A DNA stretch of 64,000 bases from Accumulibacter sp. GTDB lineage: Bacteria; Pseudomonadota; Gammaproteobacteria; Burkholderiales; Rhodocyclaceae. The notes under the pieces are model-generated. The model saw nothing but the letters and a program-made list of their open reading frames with translations. It searched no databases and was not told the origin of the DNA. The position numbers and the translations under genes were made by a program. Where the stretch lies: the NCBI GenBank assembly GCA_031732795.1, contig JAVMKC010000075.1, positions 347 to 64,346 on the forward strand. The letters run 5' to 3'. This document shows, piece after piece, positions 47,323-56,636 of the stretch. How positions within the stretch are numbered: the first letter of the stretch is position 1; every line of letters starts with the position of its first letter.

Positions 47323-47572
47323 GAGGTAGTGAAGAAATGCTCACGGGCAGGCCGAGATGTCAGGCACGAGTGCGCGAACGACAAGACTTTCAGTGGATAG
47401 GTGAGGAGTGAGTAACGGTGCAGATTGGCCGTGCAGTAGATTTATTCGCGCCTTCTGAGTGCTTCTGTCCGCCTGGCAGTGCGCCGTTTCGTCGGGAAAG
47501 TGGAAATCCGGCCGATCCCGCGAGGTCGGCAGGGGCGTGCTAGAATCGCGCCCCGCTTTTTTCTCCGTCCCG

Positions 47573-49561
47573 ATGTCCGCTTCATTGAATCCGCAGCAAC
47601 GCGCGGCGATCCGATACCTGGACGGGCCGCTGCTGGTGTTGGCCGGCGCCGGATCAGGCAAGACCCGCGTAATTACCGAAAAAATCGTTTATCTGATCGA
47701 TGACTGCGGCCTCGAACCGTGCCATATCGCGGCGATCACCTTCACCAATAAGGCGGCGCGCGAAATGCAGGAACGGGTCGGCAAATTGTTGGCCGGCAAA
47801 CGAGCGAACGGGCTGACGATTTCCACTTTTCATGCGCTTGGGGTGCGCATTCTGCGCGAGGAAGCGTCCGCGCTGGGCTACAAGCCCTCTTTTTCGATTC
47901 TGGATGCTGCCGATTGTTCCGGCATTGTCGCCGAACTGGCCGGTAGTGCCGATAAGGGCGCCATCCGCCGCTTGCAGACGCAATTGTCGAACTGGAAAAA
48001 CGCGCTGATTTCGCCTGATGAAGCCCGGCAACAGGCACAAACGGACGGTGAATCGTTGGCTGCCAACGTCTACGCCAGCTACGTGGCGACGTTGCGCGCG
48101 TACCAAGCGGTTGATTTCGACGATTTGATCGTTCTGCCGGTCGCGTTGTTCGACCAGCAACCGGAGCGGCGCGAGAAATGGCAGAACCGTTTGCGTTACC
48201 TGCTGATCGATGAATACCAGGATACCAACGCCTGCCAGTACGCCCTGTTGAAAGGCTTGGCCGGCCCGCGGGCGGCGTTCACTGCCGTCGGTGACGACGA
48301 CCAGGCGATCTACGGTTGGCGTGGTGCCGACATCGACAACCTGCGCCGCCTGCCGGAAGAGTATCCCCAGTTGAAAGTGATTACCCTCGAGCAGAATTAC
48401 CGATCGACGGGGCGGATCCTGCAGGTGGCCAACGCGCTGATCGCCAACAATGAAAAACTGTTCGAAAAACGGTTGTGGTCAGCGTTGGGACATGGCGAGC
48501 CGATCGCCGTTACCGCCAGCAAGAGCGGCGACTCGGAAGCGGCGGCCGTGGTGATGAAATTGCAGGCGCATCGTTTCGAACATCGTGGCGAATATCGTGA
48601 TTACGCCATCCTCTACCGCGGAAATTTTCAAGCGCGGCCTTTTGAGCAGGCGTTGCGTGACCAGCGCATTCCCTATGTGTTGTCTGGAGGGCAATCGTTT
48701 TTCGACAAAGCCGAAATCAAGGACGTGCTGGCTTATCTGCGATTGCTGGCCAATCCAGATGACGATCCGGCGTACCTTCGGGCCATCACCACGCCGAAGC
48801 GTGGCGTCGGCAGCAGCACGCTGCAGACCCTGGGCACGTACGCCGGCCGCCGTCATCGTTCGTTGTTTGCCGCGGCGGTGGAGCAAGGTTTCGCCAGTCA
48901 GATTCCGCCGCGTCTGCTCGAACCGCTGGAACAGTTTTCTGGATTGGTCCGCCGGTTGCAGGCCAGTGCGGCGCATCAGCCAGTGAAGACGGTACTTGCC
49001 GAGTTGCTGACCGCCATCGACTACGAGGACTGGCTGCACCAGCGCGAGGAACGACGCACGGCGCAGGCGAAATGGGCGAACCTCCAGGATTTCTGCGACT
49101 GGCTCGGCAAAAAGGGTGAGGACGAAGGCAAGTCGCTGCTCGAGCTGACGCAGAGCATCGCTTTGAGCAGCTCGCTTGACAAGAACGAGGCCGACATCGA
49201 CGCGGTTCGCCTGTCGACGCTGCATGCGGCCAAGGGGCTGGAATTCAAACATGTTTTCCTGGTCGGTCTCGAAGAAGGAGTCCTGCCGCACCGCGAAGCC
49301 CAGGCCGACGGCCGTCTCGAGGAAGAGCGCCGCTTGATGTACGTCGGCATTACCCGCGCGCAACGCTCCTTGCATCTGAGCTATGCTGAGCGTCGTCAGC
49401 AGGGCCGGGAATGGATTCCCTGTCAGCCCTCGCGATTCATCGCCGAGCTGGGCGGTGAAAATTTGCGCTTTTCCGGGGGGAAACACCAGACAGCCCCCGA
49501 TAAGGCCACCGCCAGCCAGCGTTTGGCGACGCTCAAGGCGATGCTGGCGGAGAAGCGCTGA
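47573..49561 (+). CDS. rep: ATP-dependent DNA helicase Rep (UvrD family)
   Basis: Motifs VLAGAGSGKTRVIT, TFTNKAAREM, DEYQDTN, VGDDDQAIYGWRGA, LEQNYRS, STLHAAKGLEF, EERRLMYVGITRA; extended -10 TGcTAGAAT at 47538-47546. Confidence 0.92.
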   Translation: MSASLNPQQRAAIRYLDGPLLVLAGAGSGKTRVITEKIVYLIDDCGLEPCHIAAITFTNKAAREMQERVGKLLAGKRANGLTISTFHALGVRILREEASALGYKPSFSILDAADCSGIVAELAGSADKGAIRRLQTQLSNWKNALISPDEARQQAQTDGESLAANVYASYVATLRAYQAVDFDDLIVLPVALFDQQPERREKWQNRLRYLLIDEYQDTNACQYALLKGLAGPRAAFTAVGDDDQAIYGWRGADIDNLRRLPEEYPQLKVITLEQNYRSTGRILQVANALIANNEKLFEKRLWSALGHGEPIAVTASKSGDSEAAAVVMKLQAHRFEHRGEYRDYAILYRGNFQARPFEQALRDQRIPYVLSGGQSFFDKAEIKDVLAYLRLLANPDDDPAYLRAITTPKRGVGSSTLQTLGTYAGRRHRSLFAAAVEQGFASQIPPRLLEPLEQFSGLVRRLQASAAHQPVKTVLAELLTAIDYEDWLHQREERRTAQAKWANLQDFCDWLGKKGEDEGKSLLELTQSIALSSSLDKNEADIDAVRLSTLHAAKGLEFKHVFLVGLEEGVLPHREAQADGRLEEERRLMYVGITRAQRSLHLSYAERRQQGREWIPCQPSRFIAELGGENLRFSGGKHQTAPDKATASQRLATLKAMLAEKR

Positions 49562-49719
49562 AACATCGGCATCCTCCACCGGTCACGGGATGTTACAGCA
49601 GGTTACCAAGCAACTGACATCGATCAGTCGCGTCGCTCGTTATTGCTGCAAGACCGCAAACAAAATAATTTTCTTGCTGCGGTCGAGCGAAATCAGCCCA
49701 TTTATTTCAGGAGACCACC

Positions 49720-50103
49720 ATGTTGAAGAATTTGCTTGCTATCGCCATCGCCGCCGCTTTCGGTACCGCCGCTTTCGCACAGGTGCCCGCCGCCGCGCCG
49801 GTCAAGGAAATGGCCAAAGAAGTGGGCAAAGCCGCGGTGAGTGCAGTCACCCCCGCTACTGCTCCGGTTGCTGCTCCGGTCGCCGCCGCCCCGGCAGCCA
49901 AACCGGAGACCAAAGCCGCTGACAGCACGGTACACGCCAAGCCGGCAGTGAAGAAGCATCACGTCAAGAAGCACGGCAAGTACAAGGCGAAAAGACACGG
50001 CGTCAAAAAGCACAGCGTCAAAAAAGCCGCTGCGCCGGTAGCCACAACCCCCGCTCCCGCCGTTGCCGCTACCCCGGCGGTTCCCGCGGTGTCGGGCAAG
50101 TAA
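49720..50103 (+). CDS. Secreted low-complexity Ala/Pro/Lys/His-rich protein
   Basis: 127 aa; SD AGGAG; Sec signal MLKNLLAIAIAAAFGTAAFA; basic block KKHHVKKHGKYKAKRHGVKKHSVKK; own terminator. Confidence 0.8.
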   Translation: MLKNLLAIAIAAAFGTAAFAQVPAAAPVKEMAKEVGKAAVSAVTPATAPVAAPVAAAPAAKPETKAADSTVHAKPAVKKHHVKKHGKYKAKRHGVKKHSVKKAAAPVATTPAPAVAATPAVPAVSGK

Positions 50104-50109
50104 AGCGCT

Positions 50110-50170
50110 GCCGTCGGTTCGCCGACGGTCTGCTGGCGAATGATCAAAGGAGGCCCAGGCGGCCTCCTTT
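50110..50170. terminator. Two hairpins between convergent genes, including a bidirectional terminator
   Basis: CCGTCGG-TTCG-CCGACGG (50111-50128) and AAAGGAGGCC-CAGGC-GGCCTCCTTT (50146-50170). Confidence 0.75.
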
Positions 50171-50319
50171 GGCGTTCATGCGATCTTCGCAGTCTGCATC
50201 GCCCGACCATGCGCCTCGAAATCGGTAAAAACTGTCCCCCACTTGTCTACCCGATTCGCAACGATAGTTGATGGTTCATTGCCAGCAGGTTCCCAGGAAT
50301 GCTGGCAGCAGCGGCTCTC

Positions 50320-51522
50320 TCAAACGACCGCGCAGTGCTCTCGCAGAAAACGCATGGCCTGACCGAGCGTATCGTCGGCGTCGTCGAGCAGATAGGTTTC
50401 AGCGTCGCTGAAGAATTCCTGCCACAAGACGTCCAGATCGTCCTGCATCGCCAACGGTGCGAAGTCGCGGATGAAGGCTCGCACCGGCTCGTTGCGCAAT
50501 CCGTCGGTACGGCTTTGCTGGATCAACGCGCGGGCGGCTTTCCGGCTCAAGGTCGGTTTGGGCGCCACGCCGACGGCCAGACAGACGAAAACGGTCAACA
50601 ACGCGCTGTCGTCGGTTTTGCCGCCGGTGACCTGACGCCATCTCGATGAGGTTGCCGCTTCCAGTGGTGCGCTGTCATCGATGTTGAAGTCGCGCAGGAA
50701 GTAAGCGGGGGCGAGATCGGTGTACAACCGGTCGAGCGGCTCGTTGCGGTCGAGCAGGCGCGGTATGTCGTGCTTTTCCAGGTGTCGCCATTCACGTTCG
50801 ACACTCGGCTGCGCGGAGGGGGAAAGGCCGGCGAGCAGAGTGTGCACCCGTTGCCGGCTTTTCGTCGATACGCTTTTGCCGTGCAAGTGTTTCAACAGAC
50901 CGAGAAATTCACTGCCGTTCGGTAGCAGCGGTACTGACTTGCCGCTCAAGGTGACCAGCAGCGCGCTGCGGAGTATCGTTTCGGCGCTGGCGCCGTCCAC
51001 GTCCCGTAGCGATAGTTTCGCCTGGGTGACGAAAAGTTGTGCCGTCTCGATCGCTGCTCGGTTCTCCTGCCGTTGCTTCAGAACATGCCGGTAATCGGCC
51101 AAGGTGCGTAACGACCAGTCGGCGAGGAATGCTTTTTGTGAGATGCGCGAGGTAACCGCGCCGAGTGTCGTGTCTTCCGGCAGCGCCCACAGGCTTTTGA
51201 GCATTTCGGAGCCACCCCGGGAGTGCGACAGCAGGGTGTGATCGCGCAGCGAGCACGCCGCGCGGTCGAGATCGCCGACGCTACTCTCCTCGAGGAACAG
51301 GCTGATCAGATTCACCAGCCGTTGGCGCGCCAATTCGATGTTCGGGCGGAGATAGGCGCTGCCGAAATGGTCGGCGATCTGGACGATGCCTTTGGGCGCG
51401 TCGTTGAAAAAGCGTTCGATCTGTTGCCGGTCGATCAATCCCTGCTGAACGCCATGACGCAACGCCCGTTCGAAAAAAGGGCGGTCGTCGAAAACGGTGA
51501 CCTGTTGCTCAGCCGGAGACAT
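50320..51522 (-). CDS. Conserved hypothetical protein, fourth gene of the J-domain operon (AtcC-like by position)
   Basis: 400 aa; coding-like composition; motifs FDDRPFFERAL, APKGIVQIADHFG...LRP, SHSRGGSEML; 27 nt after the preceding gene. Confidence 0.8.
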   Translation of the reverse strand: MSPAEQQVTVFDDRPFFERALRHGVQQGLIDRQQIERFFNDAPKGIVQIADHFGSAYLRPNIELARQRLVNLISLFLEESSVGDLDRAACSLRDHTLLSHSRGGSEMLKSLWALPEDTTLGAVTSRISQKAFLADWSLRTLADYRHVLKQRQENRAAIETAQLFVTQAKLSLRDVDGASAETILRSALLVTLSGKSVPLLPNGSEFLGLLKHLHGKSVSTKSRQRVHTLLAGLSPSAQPSVEREWRHLEKHDIPRLLDRNEPLDRLYTDLAPAYFLRDFNIDDSAPLEAATSSRWRQVTGGKTDDSALLTVFVCLAVGVAPKPTLSRKAARALIQQSRTDGLRNEPVRAFIRDFAPLAMQDDLDVLWQEFFSDAETYLLDDADDTLGQAMRFLREHCAVV

Positions 51523-51549
51523 GACGTGCCGGTGCCTGACGTTGCCGGC

Positions 51550-52308
51550 TCAGAGTGCCGATTCGTCTTCGGAGTCGAGCGGCCGCGCGGGCGGCTCGGC
51601 CGAGGGGATGGCCGCAGACAGTTCGATGCGCCCGGCGATCAGATCGTCGAGCAGTTGGCGACGTGCATCGGCGCTGACCCGCGCGCGCAGGATCAACAGC
51701 ACTTCGCGGAACAGTTCGGGAAACTGGCAACGCAACAGCCAAGTCACTTCCATCCAGTCGTGGTCACTGACTTCGCTGTGATTGAGGAACGGGCGATAGC
51801 CATCGGCATCGAATAGCGCTTCCAGGCGTTCGTCGTCGTCCATTTCCATCAATGCCTCGTCGCCTTCGCCAAAGAAGTCGAAAGTGCCGGTCCGGAAGAA
51901 ATGTTCGATATTTTCGACGCGTTCCCAAAGATAGTCGGCCAGTACGTCAGTGCCGCCGTCGACCTCGCCGATTGCCGCCAGAAACTCGCCGGGATCGGCA
52001 TCGGCTCTGAAAATCACTGAATTGATCATGCCGTGCAGCCGTTGATGGTTGTTTTCCCCGTAACGCCGCTCGAGAACGATGGCCCGGGCGAACTGTTCCG
52101 GCGATACCAGCAGATTGACCACCGACTCTTTCGATGAATCGTAGTCACGCAGCACCGCCAGCAAGTCCTTGGACGGAAATTCGTCGAGGGCGACGATCAG
52201 CGCCTGATCGCCCTCGCTTTCCACCAGCGAGACCAGTGCGGCTTCCGCACCGACGATATCGCCGGCGCGAACCAGTTTCTCGGCTTTGACGAGCGCAGGG
52301 TAAGTCAT
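51550..52308 (-). CDS. Conserved hypothetical acidic protein, third gene of the J-domain operon (AtcB-like by position)
   Basis: 252 aa; starts 3 nt after the upstream stop; motifs DLLAVLRDYDSSKESVVNLLVSPEQF, DHDWMEVTW.LR. Confidence 0.8.
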   Translation of the reverse strand: MTYPALVKAEKLVRAGDIVGAEAALVSLVESEGDQALIVALDEFPSKDLLAVLRDYDSSKESVVNLLVSPEQFARAIVLERRYGENNHQRLHGMINSVIFRADADPGEFLAAIGEVDGGTDVLADYLWERVENIEHFFRTGTFDFFGEGDEALMEMDDDERLEALFDADGYRPFLNHSEVSDHDWMEVTWLLRCQFPELFREVLLILRARVSADARRQLLDDLIAGRIELSAAIPSAEPPARPLDSEDESAL

Positions 52309-52311
52309 TGC

Positions 52312-52866
52312 CTAGGTTCCAAAGTAAGGGTCTTTTTTATCGAAACCTTGTTGTGAAAGCCAATCCTCACCGGCTTCCTCAAGGTCACGGTCATCGGCAT
52401 CGTCGTCGCGCTTTTCCTCTTCGTCATCACCACGGTGGTCATGGTTGGCTGGTGAGTCTGTCGGCCGTTCATCGCCGTCAGTTTTACCGCGCAGGTATTC
52501 CAGGCAGGCGGCGACGACCAGAAAATGATCGCCGAAAGGGTCCTGCAGGACGGTTTCGGCAAGCGTCGCCGCCCAGGGCTGCAAATGCACCGAGGCTTGC
52601 AGTTGTGACCAGGTCGGCAGATCCTCGGGATCGAGACCGGACAACTGATTGAAAATTTCCGGGCGCGGAAAATCCAGTCCGCCGTGGAAAGCGACGGCAA
52701 CCATCTCCGGGTTGCACTCGATCATCGGCAGCAGCAGGGGCACTTGCTTACGTTTGTCGCGCAAACGCTTGGCAAGAACATCCTGACCGGCGGAATCGGT
52801 CATCAAATCATCGAGTTCGGCTTCGTAAGCGGATTTCAACTCGGCAAAATACGGTGACAGCCTCAC
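52312..52866 (-). CDS. Conserved hypothetical protein, second gene of the J-domain operon (AtcA-like by position)
   Basis: 184 aa; GTGA overlap with the J-domain gene; very acidic tail ending AGEDWLSQQGFD. Confidence 0.8.
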   Translation of the reverse strand: MRLSPYFAELKSAYEAELDDLMTDSAGQDVLAKRLRDKRKQVPLLLPMIECNPEMVAVAFHGGLDFPRPEIFNQLSGLDPEDLPTWSQLQASVHLQPWAATLAETVLQDPFGDHFLVVAACLEYLRGKTDGDERPTDSPANHDHRGDDEEEKRDDDADDRDLEEAGEDWLSQQGFDKKDPYFGT

Positions 52867-53141
52867 TGCAGGACTCCTTCAAGATAATGTTGCCAGATTT
52901 CGCGCGCCGTTTGCAGCGGCTGGTCGAGCAGGTTACGGCGGCGGTTGTCGTCGTAGTCCTGTCGGCGTTGGCCGTCGCCCAGTGTCTCGTATGCTTCCTG
53001 TACCGCACGGAATTTATCGGCGGCGTCTGCTTCGGTATTCCGGTCCGGATGAAACTGCAGCGCCTTGCGGCGGTAAGCCTGTTTGATCTGATCGATGGTC
53101 GCGTCGCTGGCGATCCCCAATTCAGCGTAAAAATCCTTCAT
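52863..53141 (-). CDS. atcJ: Short J-domain co-chaperone with a C-terminal PX7W motif (AtcJ-like)
   Basis: 92 aa from ATG 53141; motifs DFYAELG, IKQAYRRKALQFHPDRN (HPD), FRAVQEAYETL; tail PLQTAREIW = P-X7-W. Confidence 0.8.
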   Translation of the reverse strand: MKDFYAELGIASDATIDQIKQAYRRKALQFHPDRNTEADAADKFRAVQEAYETLGDGQRRQDYDDNRRRNLLDQPLQTAREIWQHYLEGVLQ

Positions 53142-53527
53142 TGATGCTTTCGTAGACAGAAGTCGAACCGAAATCCTGGGGCGATGCGCACTACGATCCT
53201 GGGCCAATCACTGGCTGATGACGATTCCGGCGTATCGCAAAAATGACCCGAAACTGTTCGGCAGCCGATTCATGACCGATAAAACGAACGATTTTCCGTG
53301 CTGCTTGGCGTTTTACGATAACCGTGCATTTTCCGGCCGCGCATTTTAGCCTTTGCCCGGCAGGAAAGGTCAAATTTGCCCTTGATTTCAGCTTGGAAAC
53401 GGTCTTGTCATAACATCTTGGGGCGTCTATAGTCCCACCAGTACGGCGGATGCGACGCAAGCGGAGATGAGGGGGCTGTGCAGTTGCACCGTAGACCAAT
53501 GCCGTGCGGCCCAGAGGCAAATGTGTG

Positions 53528-54661
53528 ATGCAGATCATTCAAAAAACGTGGCATGAACGATCGGGATGGGCTGGCCAACATTCGCCGATCGACAATCCCC
53601 AGTTAGTGCTGATTTTTGGCGCCACCGCCATTTTGCGTGAGCCGATGATATTGGCGTCTATTCGTGCCGATTTCCCAGGAGCGCTGATTTTCGGCTGTTC
53701 GACCGCCGGTGAAATCCACGGCACGCGGGTAAGTGACGGTAGTCTGACATTGACGGCGGTCCGTTTCGAAAAAACCCGTTTGCGTTTGGCGAGTATCCCG
53801 GTGATGGCGGCGCATGAAAGTGTCTTGGCTGGACGTGAATTGGCCGCTCAGCTTGCTGCGCCTGACCTGGTGCACCTGTTGGTCCTTTCCGATGGTTTGG
53901 GAGTCAATGGCAGTGAGTTGGTGCGTGGCTTGCGTGATTCCCTGCCCAAAAAGATCAGCGTGACGGGGGGGTTGGCCGCCGACGGGAACCGATTCGAAAC
54001 AACACTGGTCTGTGCTGATCATGTTCCTCGAACAGGTTGTGTGGCGGCACTGGGCTTTTATGGTGACGCTCTGGTCGTGGGCCATGGCTCGTTAGGTGGT
54101 TGGGATGCCTTCGGGCCGCTGCGGCGGGTGACACGTTCGCAAGGGAATATGCTTTACGAGTTGGACGGACAATCTGCGTTGTGTCTTTATAAGCAGTATC
54201 TCGGGGCATACGCGGCCGATCTGCCGGCTTCTGCGCTGCTTTTTCCCCTGGAAATGGATCTGGAATCCGGAGAGTACGGCCTGGTGCGGACGGTGGTAAA
54301 CGTCAATGAAACCGAACGAAGCATGACTTTCGCTGGGGACATTCCGCTAGGTGCGACCGTCCGCCTGATGAAGGCCAATTTTGACCGGCTGATCGGGGGG
54401 GCTGAAGATGCAGCTAACGCCAGTAAGCGTTTCTTCCGAAACATGCCGGTAGAATTGGCGTTGCTGATCAGTTGTTTCGGTCGCAAATTGGTCCTCAAAC
54501 AACGCATTGAGGAGGAGCTTGAAGCGGCCTGCGCGGTTCTCGGCGAACAGACGGTAATGACCGGGTTTTATTCGTACGGCGAAATTTCACCTTTTGTACC
54601 TCATGGGCGCTGCGAGTTGCATAATCAGACCATGACGATCACCACTTTTGCCGAACGCTGA
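53528..54661 (+). CDS. FIST N/C domain signal protein (NosP-like)
   Basis: Motifs FGCSTAGEI, VLSDGLGVNGSELV, GGLAADG..F, GSLGGW..FG..R.VTRS.GN.LYELDG, ISCFGRK, GFYSYGEISP, CELHNQTMTIT. Confidence 0.92.
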   Translation: MQIIQKTWHERSGWAGQHSPIDNPQLVLIFGATAILREPMILASIRADFPGALIFGCSTAGEIHGTRVSDGSLTLTAVRFEKTRLRLASIPVMAAHESVLAGRELAAQLAAPDLVHLLVLSDGLGVNGSELVRGLRDSLPKKISVTGGLAADGNRFETTLVCADHVPRTGCVAALGFYGDALVVGHGSLGGWDAFGPLRRVTRSQGNMLYELDGQSALCLYKQYLGAYAADLPASALLFPLEMDLESGEYGLVRTVVNVNETERSMTFAGDIPLGATVRLMKANFDRLIGGAEDAANASKRFFRNMPVELALLISCFGRKLVLKQRIEEELEAACAVLGEQTVMTGFYSYGEISPFVPHGRCELHNQTMTITTFAER

Positions 54662-54662
54662 C

Positions 54663-55952
54663 ATGCATCCGCTACTGAACCGGCAAATTCGGCGCACGCT
54701 GGGTGAATTGACCGACATTCCCGAGGATTGGCGACGCCTCCTCGAGTTGGTCGATGCTGCCTATTGCGAAAGTGACGAAGATCGACGGCAGCTCGAGCGG
54801 ATGGTCGAATTGTCCTCCAGCGAACTGAATCGGCAAAATGCGACGTTGAAACACGAGGTTGACGAGCGGCAGCAGGCCGAAACCCAATTACGCGAGAGTT
54901 ATAAGCGGCTGGCGGTATGGGCGCGGCACCTTGAAACGCATAACCAGCAGATGGCGTTGCTGAACAAATTGGGCGACATGCTGCAAGCCTGTCAGCATGT
55001 CGCTGAAACCCATCGCATTTTGTCAGAGTTGCTGGCCCAGCTCTTTCCCGATGATGCCGGCAGTCTCGCCCTGCTGGGGGATCCCGAAAATTTTTATGAG
55101 GTGGTTGCCGACTGGGGTGATGGCGTCGAACGTAGACGGCAGTTCCATGCCAACGAATGCTGGGCATTGCGTCGAGGACACGCGCATCAGACGGTTCCCG
55201 GCGAAGGCGAAGCCTCTCGTTGCGCCCATTTGTTGCAAGCCCCCCCCGGAGGTTACCTTTGCGTGCCGTTGATTGCCCAAGGTCGAATGCCAGGTGTGCT
55301 GACCTTGCAGCAAGGCCAGTTCGAGAACGAGGAAGTTGACCCGGAAGATCATCTGGGATTGCTGGAAGCGCGCCGACAACTGGTGCACATGACTTCTGAG
55401 AACATCGGTTTGGCGATCGTCAATTTGCGCCTCCGTGAATCGCTGCGTACGCAGTCACTGCGTGATCCGCTGACCGGGCTGTATAACCGGCGGCATATGG
55501 ACGACTTCATGGCCCGCGAATGTCGTCGGGCGCAACGGCAGCATCGTTCGGTCTCGTTCATGATGGTCGATGTCGACCATTTCAAGCGTTTCAACGATAA
55601 ACACGGTCACCAGGCGGGCGACGCGTTGCTTGCCGGGCTGGCGCAAGCCCTGCAACAACGCTTGCGGGGGGATGACATCGCCTGCCGCTATGGTGGTGAA
55701 GAGTTCATCGTCATCTTGCCGGGAGCGTCATTGGGAAACGTCGTGCAACGTGCCGAATCTTTACGTCGACTCGTAGCGGATGACTTGCGCATCATCTATG
55801 ACGGTGAGGAGCTTCCCGGAGTGACCCTGTCGATCGGCGTATCCACTTTCCCAGAACACGGGCTCAGCGGCGAACAGTGTATTCGCGCTGCAGACGATGC
55901 GTTATATCGCGCCAAGTTGGCTGGCAGAGACCGGGTCGTCGAAGCCGAGTAG
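54663..55952 (+). CDS. Diguanylate cyclase with N-terminal coiled coil and GAF-like domain
   Basis: ATG 2 nt after the FIST stop; starts MHPLLNRQIRR; motifs CWALRRG, RDPLTGLYNRR, DVDHFKRFNDKHGH..GD, I-site RGDD, active site GGEEF. Confidence 0.92.
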   Translation: MHPLLNRQIRRTLGELTDIPEDWRRLLELVDAAYCESDEDRRQLERMVELSSSELNRQNATLKHEVDERQQAETQLRESYKRLAVWARHLETHNQQMALLNKLGDMLQACQHVAETHRILSELLAQLFPDDAGSLALLGDPENFYEVVADWGDGVERRRQFHANECWALRRGHAHQTVPGEGEASRCAHLLQAPPGGYLCVPLIAQGRMPGVLTLQQGQFENEEVDPEDHLGLLEARRQLVHMTSENIGLAIVNLRLRESLRTQSLRDPLTGLYNRRHMDDFMARECRRAQRQHRSVSFMMVDVDHFKRFNDKHGHQAGDALLAGLAQALQQRLRGDDIACRYGGEEFIVILPGASLGNVVQRAESLRRLVADDLRIIYDGEELPGVTLSIGVSTFPEHGLSGEQCIRAADDALYRAKLAGRDRVVEAE

Positions 55953-55997
55953 CCGACGTGTACGTTTTCCAAGCACGGTACCAGACGTTACGGCGGC

Positions 55998-56636
55998 ATG
56001 CCATTCAATTCCTCTGACCGCAAGACTCTTCGCGCTGTAAAAGGTGTCGGGGATGTCGTGATTACGCGGCTTGAGCAGCTCGGTTACTCGTCGCTAAACG
56101 AGTTGGCTCAGGCCGGAGTGGATCATATTCTTGCTCGAGGGGCTGCTCTGACCGGGTCCTCCTGCTGGAAAAATAGTCCTCAAGCACGCGCCGCCATTGC
56201 CGGTGCAATTGCTGTCGCCAGGAGCCTGTCGGACTTGAGCGATCGTAACGAACTGCGAGGGACAACGATGATCGTTGTTCCTGATTTCGATGCGCATGGC
56301 GAGCCTATGCAACGAGAGCAACAGCCAAAGCACAAGGCAGTGAGTTCATCTGTGGGGATTTCCGAACTGCCAGGTTTGGGCGCCAAGTCGGCCCATATGC
56401 TTGCGGCGGCTGGAATAACGTCTGTTGATCGTTTGCGTTACAAAGGTGCTGTTGGCGCATTTCTCGCGGTCAAGAATAGTGGTCAGCGTCCGAGCCTCAA
56501 TTTATTGTGGGCACTGGAAGGGGCGTTGACAGGCGTACCATGGCAAGAAGTTTCACGCCAGCACAGAACGAGTCTGCTGTTGGGGTTGGAGAAAGCGGAA
56601 ACCGAACTTCTTGTCGTTGCACGCGACCCGCGATAG
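55998..56636 (+). CDS. In-frame fusion of a small helix-hairpin-helix protein with a TfoX/Sxy C-terminal domain
   Basis: N-half LRAVKGVGDVVITRLEQLG...CWKNSPQARAAI; C-half ELPGLGAKS..ML..AGI...SLNLLWALEGAL..W; internal SD GAGGGA plus in-frame ATG at 56268. Confidence 0.8.
   Translation: MPFNSSDRKTLRAVKGVGDVVITRLEQLGYSSLNELAQAGVDHILARGAALTGSSCWKNSPQARAAIAGAIAVARSLSDLSDRNELRGTTMIVVPDFDAHGEPMQREQQPKHKAVSSSVGISELPGLGAKSAHMLAAAGITSVDRLRYKGAVGAFLAVKNSGQRPSLNLLWALEGALTGVPWQEVSRQHRTSLLLGLEKAETELLVVARDPR

Follow-up and report, generated by a model that had tools for sequence, protein, structure and literature searches.

The window analysed here, a stretch of 64,000 nucleotides from an Accumulibacter genome, contains four tightly coupled open reading frames of 92, 184, 252 and 400 amino acids, all encoded on the minus strand. 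They are listed below in the direction of transcription, together with a promoter-like element and a hairpin on either side, under gene names that anticipate the probable assignment argued in the following paragraphs.

53343..53373, minus strand: promoter-like element read from the sequence, with TTGACC at 53373-53368, a 19-nt spacer and TAAAAT at 53348-53343
52863..53141, minus strand: atcJ, 92 aa from ATG, class C J-domain protein matching Pfam DnaJ and NF050028
52312..52866, minus strand: atcA, 184 aa, GTG start, match to NF047888
51550..52308, minus strand: atcB, 252 aa, NF047889 reached through intermediate sequences
50320..51522, minus strand: atcC, long form, 400 aa, match to NF047890
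50146..50170, no strand assigned: GC-rich hairpin with a perfect 10-bp stem and no U-tract

The list of open reading frames and the junction sequences bear out the gene lengths and the close coupling described in the original prediction: atcJ and atcA overlap in the sequence GTGA (spacing –4 nt), atcA and atcB are separated by 3 nt (GCA), and atcB and atcC by 27 nt. The GTG start codon of atcA is preceded by a GGAG sequence 8 nt upstream. For atcJ, the open reading frame list gives a longer form of 114 aa starting from an upstream TTG. The ATG at 53141 is the correct start codon, given that the median length among the relatives is 92 aa and their alignments begin at residue 1. The order J-A-B-C, including the 4-nt overlap between the first two genes, is found in all 78 complete loci among the 80 related loci listed, which belong mostly to Accumulibacter and Undibacterium and do not include Collimonas. 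Homologs number in the hundreds for each of the four genes (1123 matches for B, 532 for C and 170 for A). This number of homologs and the conserved gene order demonstrate that the operon is more than a chance arrangement.

The promoter-like element is located ∼200 nt upstream of the atcJ start codon and was missed by a consensus promoter scan because of its 19-nt spacer. The same block is also kept in the three closest loci (L001-L003), whose flanking genes differ, and it is a putative promoter of the operon. At the other end, the GC-rich hairpin sits between atcC and a convergent open reading frame of 127 aa. Its predicted fold has a dG of –23.7 kcal/mol and a z of –2.8 relative to shuffled sequences, and it could possibly function as a terminator.

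The reference for a comparison is the AtcJABC system of Shewanella oneidensis MR-1, encoded by SO_1850, SO_1849, SO_1848 and SO_1846 (Maillot et al. 2019, PMC6715715). A recent preprint describes atc operons in 294 proteomes, mainly of Beta- and Gammaproteobacteria, and provides experimental tests of the systems from Collimonas arenae and Janthinobacterium sp. B9-8, both with a long AtcC (Boussouar 2026, 10.64898/2026.09.07.749886). The earlier statement that no such system had been characterized outside Shewanella is therefore outdated. In the literature, the gene order is described as constant, AtcJ is a short class C J-protein whose PX7W motif lies in a C-terminal extension of ∼21 aa, AtcC is often far longer than the 298 aa of the Shewanella protein, and AtcA carries an acidic disordered region. 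The main text of the preprint does not name Accumulibacter (10.64898/2026.09.07.749886).

AtcJ matches the Pfam DnaJ domain with residues 3-64 (E 5.8e-23) and carries the H31-P32-D33 motif, followed by the sequence PLQTAREIW, which corresponds to P75-x7-W83. The expected bare J-domain with a PX7W tail is thus present, but the protein does not end in this motif as had been proposed, since nine further residues (QHYLEGVLQ) follow W83. Residues 1-86 align to positions 1-92 of the 93 positions of NF050028 (E 2.4e-13, 50.4 bits), and the tail raises the score by 8.6 bits for this model only. When used alone (26 or 35 aa), the tail matched no model, the query being too short. Among the 78 syntenic AtcJ homologs from the listed loci, HPD is present in all and PX7W in 77. 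The AtcJ of a Dechloromonas/Azonexus locus has an intact W83; a Trp-substituted AtcJ has been described in D. denitrificans (10.64898/2026.09.07.749886).

AtcA matches NF047888 with residues 47-167, collinear with positions 49-169 of the 178 positions of the model (E 6.3e-5, 22.9 bits). This is the sole family matched by its relatives, 16 out of 20 of which give a match (best 2.6e-8). A comparable result was obtained for AtcC, with residues 12-189 falling on positions 9-189 of 297 in NF047890 (E 1.5e-3, 18.1 bits) and matches for 18 of 20 relatives (best 8.4e-7). Hence, homology to the Shewanella-type protein covers the first ∼190 aa of AtcC, and only long forms possess its C-terminal half. 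The protein is predicted to be all-helical (AF2 pLDDT 90), and every AtcC homolog is tagged PF26699, a domain of unknown function (DUF8235). Taken together, the NCBIfam matches of AtcJ, AtcA and AtcC run collinear, and neither A nor C matches another family. With a local copy of Pfam, no recognizable domain was found in A, B or C, in agreement with the original prediction.

For the 252-aa protein, no direct match to NF047889 was obtained. However, when a library of 1.8 billion proteins was searched with the profile of its family, the sequence P0508 was found at 2.2e-7, and this sequence in turn matches NF047889 at 3.4e-9. A second intermediate, P0373, which scores 3.9e-61 against the same profile, spans positions 2-243 of the 252 positions of the model, and P0389 and P0493 further link the family to NF047889. 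When 32 representatives were scanned singly, 13 gave a collinear NF047889 match at E<0.1. These results support homology of the 252-aa protein to AtcB, a link that is transitive through the intermediates. A search with NF047889 over 400 class-wide genomes gave no match, the controls included, in a sample that contains no Shewanella-type genome. AtcB is likewise predicted to be all-helical (AF2 pLDDT 83). A PDB sequence search with AtcB found no match, and a Foldseek comparison of AtcB and AtcC with PDB structures gave no match at E<=0.001, but only generic helical-repeat noise.

Two aspartates of AtcB, D34 and D57, show no variation across 60 sequences. They are 23 residues apart and, according to the match offsets, fall on NF047889 positions ∼36/59 to 37/60. 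The pairs mutated in the published work are D37/D60 in S. oneidensis, D28/D51 in C. arenae and D33/D56 in Janthinobacterium sp. B9-8 (10.64898/2026.09.07.749886), and the spacing in all three is the same 23 residues as in Accumulibacter. We therefore regard D34/D57 as the candidate RNA polymerase-binding pair.

None of the four proteins comes close to its NCBIfam equivalog cut-off, with 50.4 versus 150 bits for J, 22.9 versus 200 for A, none versus 440 for B and 18.1 versus 370 for C, which explains why the proteins are labelled “hypothetical” in the databases. These models were curated around the Shewanella type and miss the betaproteobacterial Atc proteins. The same low scores, together with the lack of a direct match for AtcB, are what an unrelated J-domain operon would give that resembles atc only in its gene sizes and a chance PX7W motif. 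We consider this explanation extremely unlikely. It would have to account for three independent collinear model matches in the right gene order that recur across families, for the path from AtcB to NF047889 through intermediates with the aspartate pair at exactly the published spacing, and for a PX7W motif kept in 77 of 78 homologs listed, with residue numbers as in the Collimonas AtcJ. The analysis rather argues, with high confidence, that the operon is the atcJABC operon of Candidatus Accumulibacter and belongs to the published Atc system, with its mechanism carried over from the tested homologs. The proposal of a betaproteobacterial counterpart of atcJABC is accordingly borne out by the matches for J, A and C, the transitive link for AtcB and the aspartate spacing. 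In view of the published coverage of 294 proteomes and the two betaproteobacterial systems tested, the locus is not the poorly described system it had been taken for, but most probably a further case, so far unannotated, of a described one. The operon itself is real, unannotated and ordinary.

The Accumulibacter and S. oneidensis systems share the J-A-B-C order, an AtcJ of ∼92-94 aa with H31PD and a PX7W tail, an AtcA of ∼180 aa, an AtcB of 252 aa with two aspartates 23 residues apart and a homologous AtcC N-terminus of ∼190 aa; in both, A, B and C are without recognizable domains. They differ in that the sequences are very divergent, as judged by the NCBIfam models, and in that the host is a betaproteobacterium here. 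Moreover, AtcC measures 400 aa instead of 298 aa, the tryptophan of the PX7W motif is at position 83 instead of 89, and atcJ and atcA overlap by 4 nt, whereas a 120-bp gap separates them in Shewanella. Compared by published residue positions, the Collimonas AtcJ has an intact PX7W motif with H31 and W83 numbered as in Accumulibacter, and I82 and Y86 of the Accumulibacter AtcJ correspond to positions tested in Janthinobacterium sp. B9-8. By description, the Collimonas and Janthinobacterium systems also share the betaproteobacterial host, the long AtcC and an AtcA with an acidic disordered region, but they belong to the Oxalobacteraceae and Chromobacteriaceae, whereas Accumulibacter belongs to the Rhodocyclaceae. 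The nearest named relatives from the Oxalobacteraceae (Undibacterium, Solimicrobium and Herminiimonas) show 53-60% identity in B and 40-45% in C.

By analogy to the tested homologs, AtcJ would stimulate DnaK via its HPD loop, while its tail would dock on the 400-aa AtcC with Trp83 as the main contact residue. The partner of AtcC would be the 252-aa AtcB, whose D34 and D57 would make the contact with RNA polymerase at the basic helix of the β′ subunit (SETKSKKFSKRLKIL in the Accumulibacter genome). DnaK recruited by AtcJ-AtcC would then limit the amount of inhibited AtcB-RNA polymerase complex. As a result, chaperone activity would be coupled to transcription, a coupling that Shewanella requires to grow in the cold. 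AtcA, with its 184 aa and acidic disordered linker, is part of the operon without an assigned step. Both presumed host partners are encoded in the genome: DnaK (contig C86) shares 70% identity with its E. coli counterpart, and RpoC (contig C39) keeps the basic helix, with SETKSKKFSKRLKIL compared to SETKRKKLTKRIKLL in E. coli. Some divergent AtcB proteins fail to bind E. coli RNA polymerase (10.64898/2026.09.07.749886), and AtcB-RNA polymerase binding therefore needs case-by-case testing. A known parallel is HscB-IscU-HscA, in which an operon-encoded, small and specialized class C J-protein also hands one specific partner to an Hsp70. That system has its own Hsp70 (HscA), serves Fe-S cluster transfer and uses non-homologous partners, whereas generic DnaK is the expected partner and RNA polymerase the end target of the Accumulibacter operon.

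The second and third proteins had been predicted to carry acidic tails, suggestive of nucleic-acid mimicry. An acidic region is indeed present in AtcA, where residues 126-184 contain 22 D/E versus 9 K/R, and AtcB is acidic overall (pI 4.3). The description nevertheless fits only in part. In the alignment, the N-terminal domain of AtcA is conserved, the acidic linker that follows varies, and the C-terminus carries the conserved motif DLEEAGxDWLxxQGFD; the tail of AtcB is only mildly acidic and terminates in ESAL. Mimicry of nucleic acids was rejected, as nothing in the sequence analysis or the papers favors such a role, and published RNA polymerase binding depends on two N-terminal aspartates of AtcB and the basic helix of RpoC, and does not involve the tail.

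The terminal peptides themselves are conserved. The AtcB C-terminus has the form (E/D)ESAL in 79 of the 80 syntenic loci listed, and a final -SA[L/I] is kept in 26 of 33 distant AtcB representatives, down to ∼24% identity. The linker preceding this peptide is disordered and not conserved. A DxDW motif is located at residues 182-185 of AtcB. The EEVD tail of Hsp70 and Hsp90 docks into TPR co-chaperones, and the AtcB peptide may, as a tentative suggestion to which we give rather low odds, be a determinant of the AtcB-AtcC contact that docks into the all-helical AtcC in an EEVD/TPR-like manner, or a site recognized by DnaK or by a protease controlling the amount of AtcB. A second docking-type motif could be the DLEEAGxDWLxxQGFD end of AtcA, which would offer a first clue to the role of this protein.

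AtcB is found in 39 of 40 Accumulibacter genomes. Across the family, the operon has a patchy distribution, with 11 of 89 genera. In the genome studied here, the operon is single-copy, its G+C content matches that of the flanks, and its chromosomal position differs from that in most Accumulibacter genomes. Over-produced AtcB is toxic, and AtcC together with AtcJ rescues the cells (10.64898/2026.09.07.749886). This toxicity, the unusual chromosomal place and the patchy occurrence would fit a chaperone-dependent toxin-antitoxin, addiction or defence module, in which AtcB is an RNA polymerase toxin held in check by AtcJ-AtcC and host DnaK. Such a module would not be expected to be near-universal in the genus, single-copy and of the same G+C content as its surroundings, and the operon has no integrase, transposase or phage gene as a neighbor. 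PADLOC gave no match for any of the four proteins, the AtcB, AtcC and AtcJ trees are congruent with the species tree (10.64898/2026.09.07.749886), and deletion of atcB impairs growth in the cold instead of bringing relief (literature). A toxin module is thus very unlikely, and we retain the assignment to the Atc system.

Since Accumulibacter is a mesophilic wastewater organism, a specific cold role of its Atc system is an extrapolation. The Atc proteins could also act as a general DnaK-gated brake on RNA polymerase under other stresses or during transitions in growth, for example in the feast-famine cycles of a polyphosphate accumulator. Even in Shewanella, neither the regulated genes nor the physiological signal are established. 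The near-universal presence of AtcB in a mesophilic genus would also be in line with such a function, as would an Rfam search near the operon, which found no RNA element and no known RNA thermosensor. [quoted passage not shown] We consider a role other than cold growth to be the less likely option, albeit a serious one.

The value of assigning this operon to the Atc system lies mostly in annotation, because hundreds of betaproteobacterial proteins now listed as “hypothetical” or DUF8235 would belong to a described control system leading from DnaK to RNA polymerase. Accumulibacter species are well-studied phosphate removers, and the near-universal presence of the system in the genus (39/40) makes it a sensible choice for studies of the response of Accumulibacter to winter cold in treatment plants. 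For the published model, the peptides conserved at the C-termini of AtcB and AtcA provide leads on the AtcB-AtcC contact and on the role of AtcA.

The Atc system, an AtcJ-AtcA-AtcB-AtcC operon linking DnaK with RNA polymerase (RNAP), was defined in Shewanella by Maillot et al. 2019 (PMC6715715). The original prediction took four tightly coupled genes to be its counterpart, and the ORF listing returned these genes on the minus strand with the sizes described:

52863..53141, minus strand, atcJ (92 aa, ATG start)
52312..52866, minus strand, atcA (184 aa, GTG start)
51550..52308, minus strand, atcB (252 aa)
50320..51522, minus strand, atcC (400 aa)

At the junctions, we read the expected GTGA overlap between the atcJ stop and the atcA start, with a GGAG 8 nt 5′ of the latter, and the expected gaps of 3 nt (atcA-atcB) and 27 nt (atcB-atcC). 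The window belongs to contig C75 of an assembly that is 3.6 Mb in size and 97% complete, and AtcA, AtcB and AtcC are single-copy in it. The nearest relatives of all four proteins belong to Candidatus Accumulibacter genomes (AtcB and AtcJ up to 91-92% identity), followed by Oxalobacteraceae such as Undibacterium, Solimicrobium, Sapientia and Herminiimonas.

The small J-protein matches Pfam DnaJ over residues 3-64 (E 5.8e-23) and carries H31-P-D and the tail motif P75-LQTAREI-W83 (PX7W). Domain, HPD and motif are thus as originally described, but the protein does not end at the Trp, since nine residues follow W83. The NCBIfam AtcJ model NF050028 aligns to residues 1-86 (model positions 1-92 of 93, E 2.4e-13), and its score rises from 41.8 bits for the J-domain alone to 50.4 bits for the whole protein. 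The tail adds specifically to this match, because its inclusion raises the scores of generic DnaJ models by about one bit or lowers them. In Collimonas AtcJ, H31 and W83 are numbered identically, and the positions probed in Janthinobacterium AtcJ are matched here by I82 and Y86.

For the other three proteins, the earlier statement that no domain is recognisable agrees with our local Pfam copy, which matches none of them. Nevertheless, the AtcA model NF047888 aligns to residues 47-167 of the 184-aa protein (model 49-169 of 178, E 6.3e-5) and to 16 of 20 diverse relatives (best 2.6e-8), while the AtcC model NF047890 aligns to residues 12-189 of the 400-aa protein (model 9-189 of 297, E 1.5e-3) and to 18 of 20 relatives (best 8.4e-7). 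No competing NCBIfam family was found for either. Three of the four NCBIfam Atc equivalog models are therefore matched, weakly but collinearly. In public records, proteins of all four families are called hypothetical (relatives of AtcC also DUF8235), because their scores lie far below the equivalog cut-offs. AtcC has a confident, all-helical AlphaFold2 model (pLDDT 90, pTM 0.69). The C-terminus of AtcA (window 52315-52392) shows a conserved DLEEAGxDWLxxQGFD[RK] motif downstream of a variable acidic linker, with D161, L162, G166, W169, Q173, G174 and F175 invariant in 20 sequences; an acidic disordered region has been described for AtcA (10.64898/2026.09.07.749886).

The 252-aa protein has the weakest link of the four: the AtcB model NF047889 matched neither this protein nor anything across the host genome, and we therefore took a profile route via intermediates. 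A profile built from 20 relatives gave 189 matches at E<=0.001 among 1.84 billion representative proteins. Three of the 33 full-length matches reached AtcB at E<=0.001 when scanned against NCBIfam, and 13 of 32 representatives scanned one at a time gave collinear AtcB matches at E<0.1. The bridging proteins include P0508 (221 aa, Patescibacteria bacterium; profile 2.2e-7, AtcB model 3.4e-9), P0389 (Aromatoleum; 5e-50 and 8.8e-4) and P0373 (3.9e-61), to which the AtcB model aligned over 2-243 of 252. These results support homology to AtcB, but only transitively, through intermediates. P0508 is the representative nearest to the Shewanella-type model, ahead of every betaproteobacterial member.

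AtcB reportedly binds RNAP via two Asp residues at a constant spacing of 23 residues, and the pairs that were mutated are Shewanella D37/D60, Collimonas D28/D51 and Janthinobacterium sp. B9-8 D33/D56 (10.64898/2026.09.07.749886). All 60 sequences compared in our family carry D34 and D57, which fall, by the offsets of the model matches, at AtcB model positions 36/59 to 37/60. Shewanella AtcB is also identical in length (252 aa). The AlphaFold2 model is all-helical and confident (pLDDT 83, pTM 0.77), with residues 235-249 disordered. Comparing this model and that of AtcC with the PDB gave no match at E<=0.001 for either, consistent with the published description of the Atc proteins as lacking any known domain (PMC6715715).

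The last five codons of atcB (window 51550-51564) encode (E/D)ESAL in 79 of the best 80 loci among 248 genomes, and 26 of 33 distant representatives still end in -SA[L/I], after a linker that is unconserved and predicted to be disordered. This pattern is compatible with a terminal docking peptide; preprint 10.64898/2026.09.07.749886 makes no mention of the motif in its main text.

For synteny, we sampled one genome per species, obtaining 248 genomes with an AtcB relative, and examined the best 80 loci. The order J-A-B-C and the 4-nt J/A overlap were present in all 78 loci with a sufficiently long contig. In these, the J-proteins carry HPD (78/78) and PX7W (77/78), and the AtcC homologues measure 398-425 aa. 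Together, the model matches, the AtcB bridges, the Asp pair and this synteny bear out the Atc reading and speak against a J-domain operon unrelated to Atc, which we consider very unlikely. A toxin-antitoxin or defence module is also unlikely: PADLOC matched none of the four proteins, no mobile-element gene was found near the operon, its G+C content equals that of the flanks, and it occurs in a single copy and in nearly all members of the genus, with atcB in 39 of 40 genomes. At host-family level, atcB is patchy (17/151 genomes, 11/89 genera), in contrast to the vertical inheritance described for the system.

Within window 47459-56636, the operon's neighbours are FIST sensor and GAF-GGDEF cyclase genes on one side, and an Ala/Lys-rich ORF and the gene for a Rep helicase on the other; none of the four lies beside it in the best 80 related loci. 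Most Accumulibacter genomes have a metF-like and another gene upstream of it. Their orthologs sit mid-contig on a different contig of this assembly (C60:71968-74615), placing the operon at a different chromosomal location and pointing to local rearrangement or relocation. The closest related locus, L001, has yet another upstream neighbour. On the plus strand (53504-55952), the FIST N+C sensor gene (385 aa) overlaps the start of the GAF-GGDEF diguanylate cyclase gene (434 aa); the pair, divergently oriented to atcJ, is likely a two-gene unit for c-di-GMP signalling. A promoter-like TTGACC-19 nt-TAAAAT (53343-53373, minus), about 200 nt 5′ of atcJ, is kept in the window and its three closest relatives although flanking genes differ; its position implies a long 5′ leader in the window and L001. 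Convergent with atcC lies a 127-aa Ala/Lys/Pro-rich ORF (49720-50103, plus), whose product has no Pfam match and is hydrophobic at its N-terminus, and between them a perfect 10-bp GC-rich hairpin without U-tract (50146-50170; dG -23.7, z -2.8). In an Azonexus locus, atcC is followed by a larger HC2/TonB_2-like low-complexity protein gene.

The claims that the system is poorly described and uncharacterised outside Shewanella have been overtaken. Of the 294 reference proteomes reported to contain the atc operon, most are from Beta- and Gammaproteobacteria; the gene order is invariable, AtcC is frequently much longer than Shewanella's, and two betaproteobacterial systems were tested for interaction network and AtcB toxicity (10.64898/2026.09.07.749886); Accumulibacter is not named in the preprint's main text. 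Novelty is accordingly low, and our data support the operon as a further member of the known Atc system.

The host encodes DnaK (70% identity to E. coli DnaK), an adjoining DnaJ, and HscA. AtcB reportedly contacts a basic helix of RpoC (KRKKLTKRIK in E. coli; deletion of residues 215-220 gives a non-binding strain) (10.64898/2026.09.07.749886), which is conserved in the host (segment SETKSKKFSKRLKIL). A cold-specific role in this mesophilic wastewater organism would be an extrapolation. By homology, AtcJ would activate DnaK via its HPD and dock on AtcC via its Trp-bearing tail, AtcC would hold AtcB, AtcB would sit on the β′ basic helix via D34/D57, and DnaK would limit the inhibited AtcB-RNAP complex.
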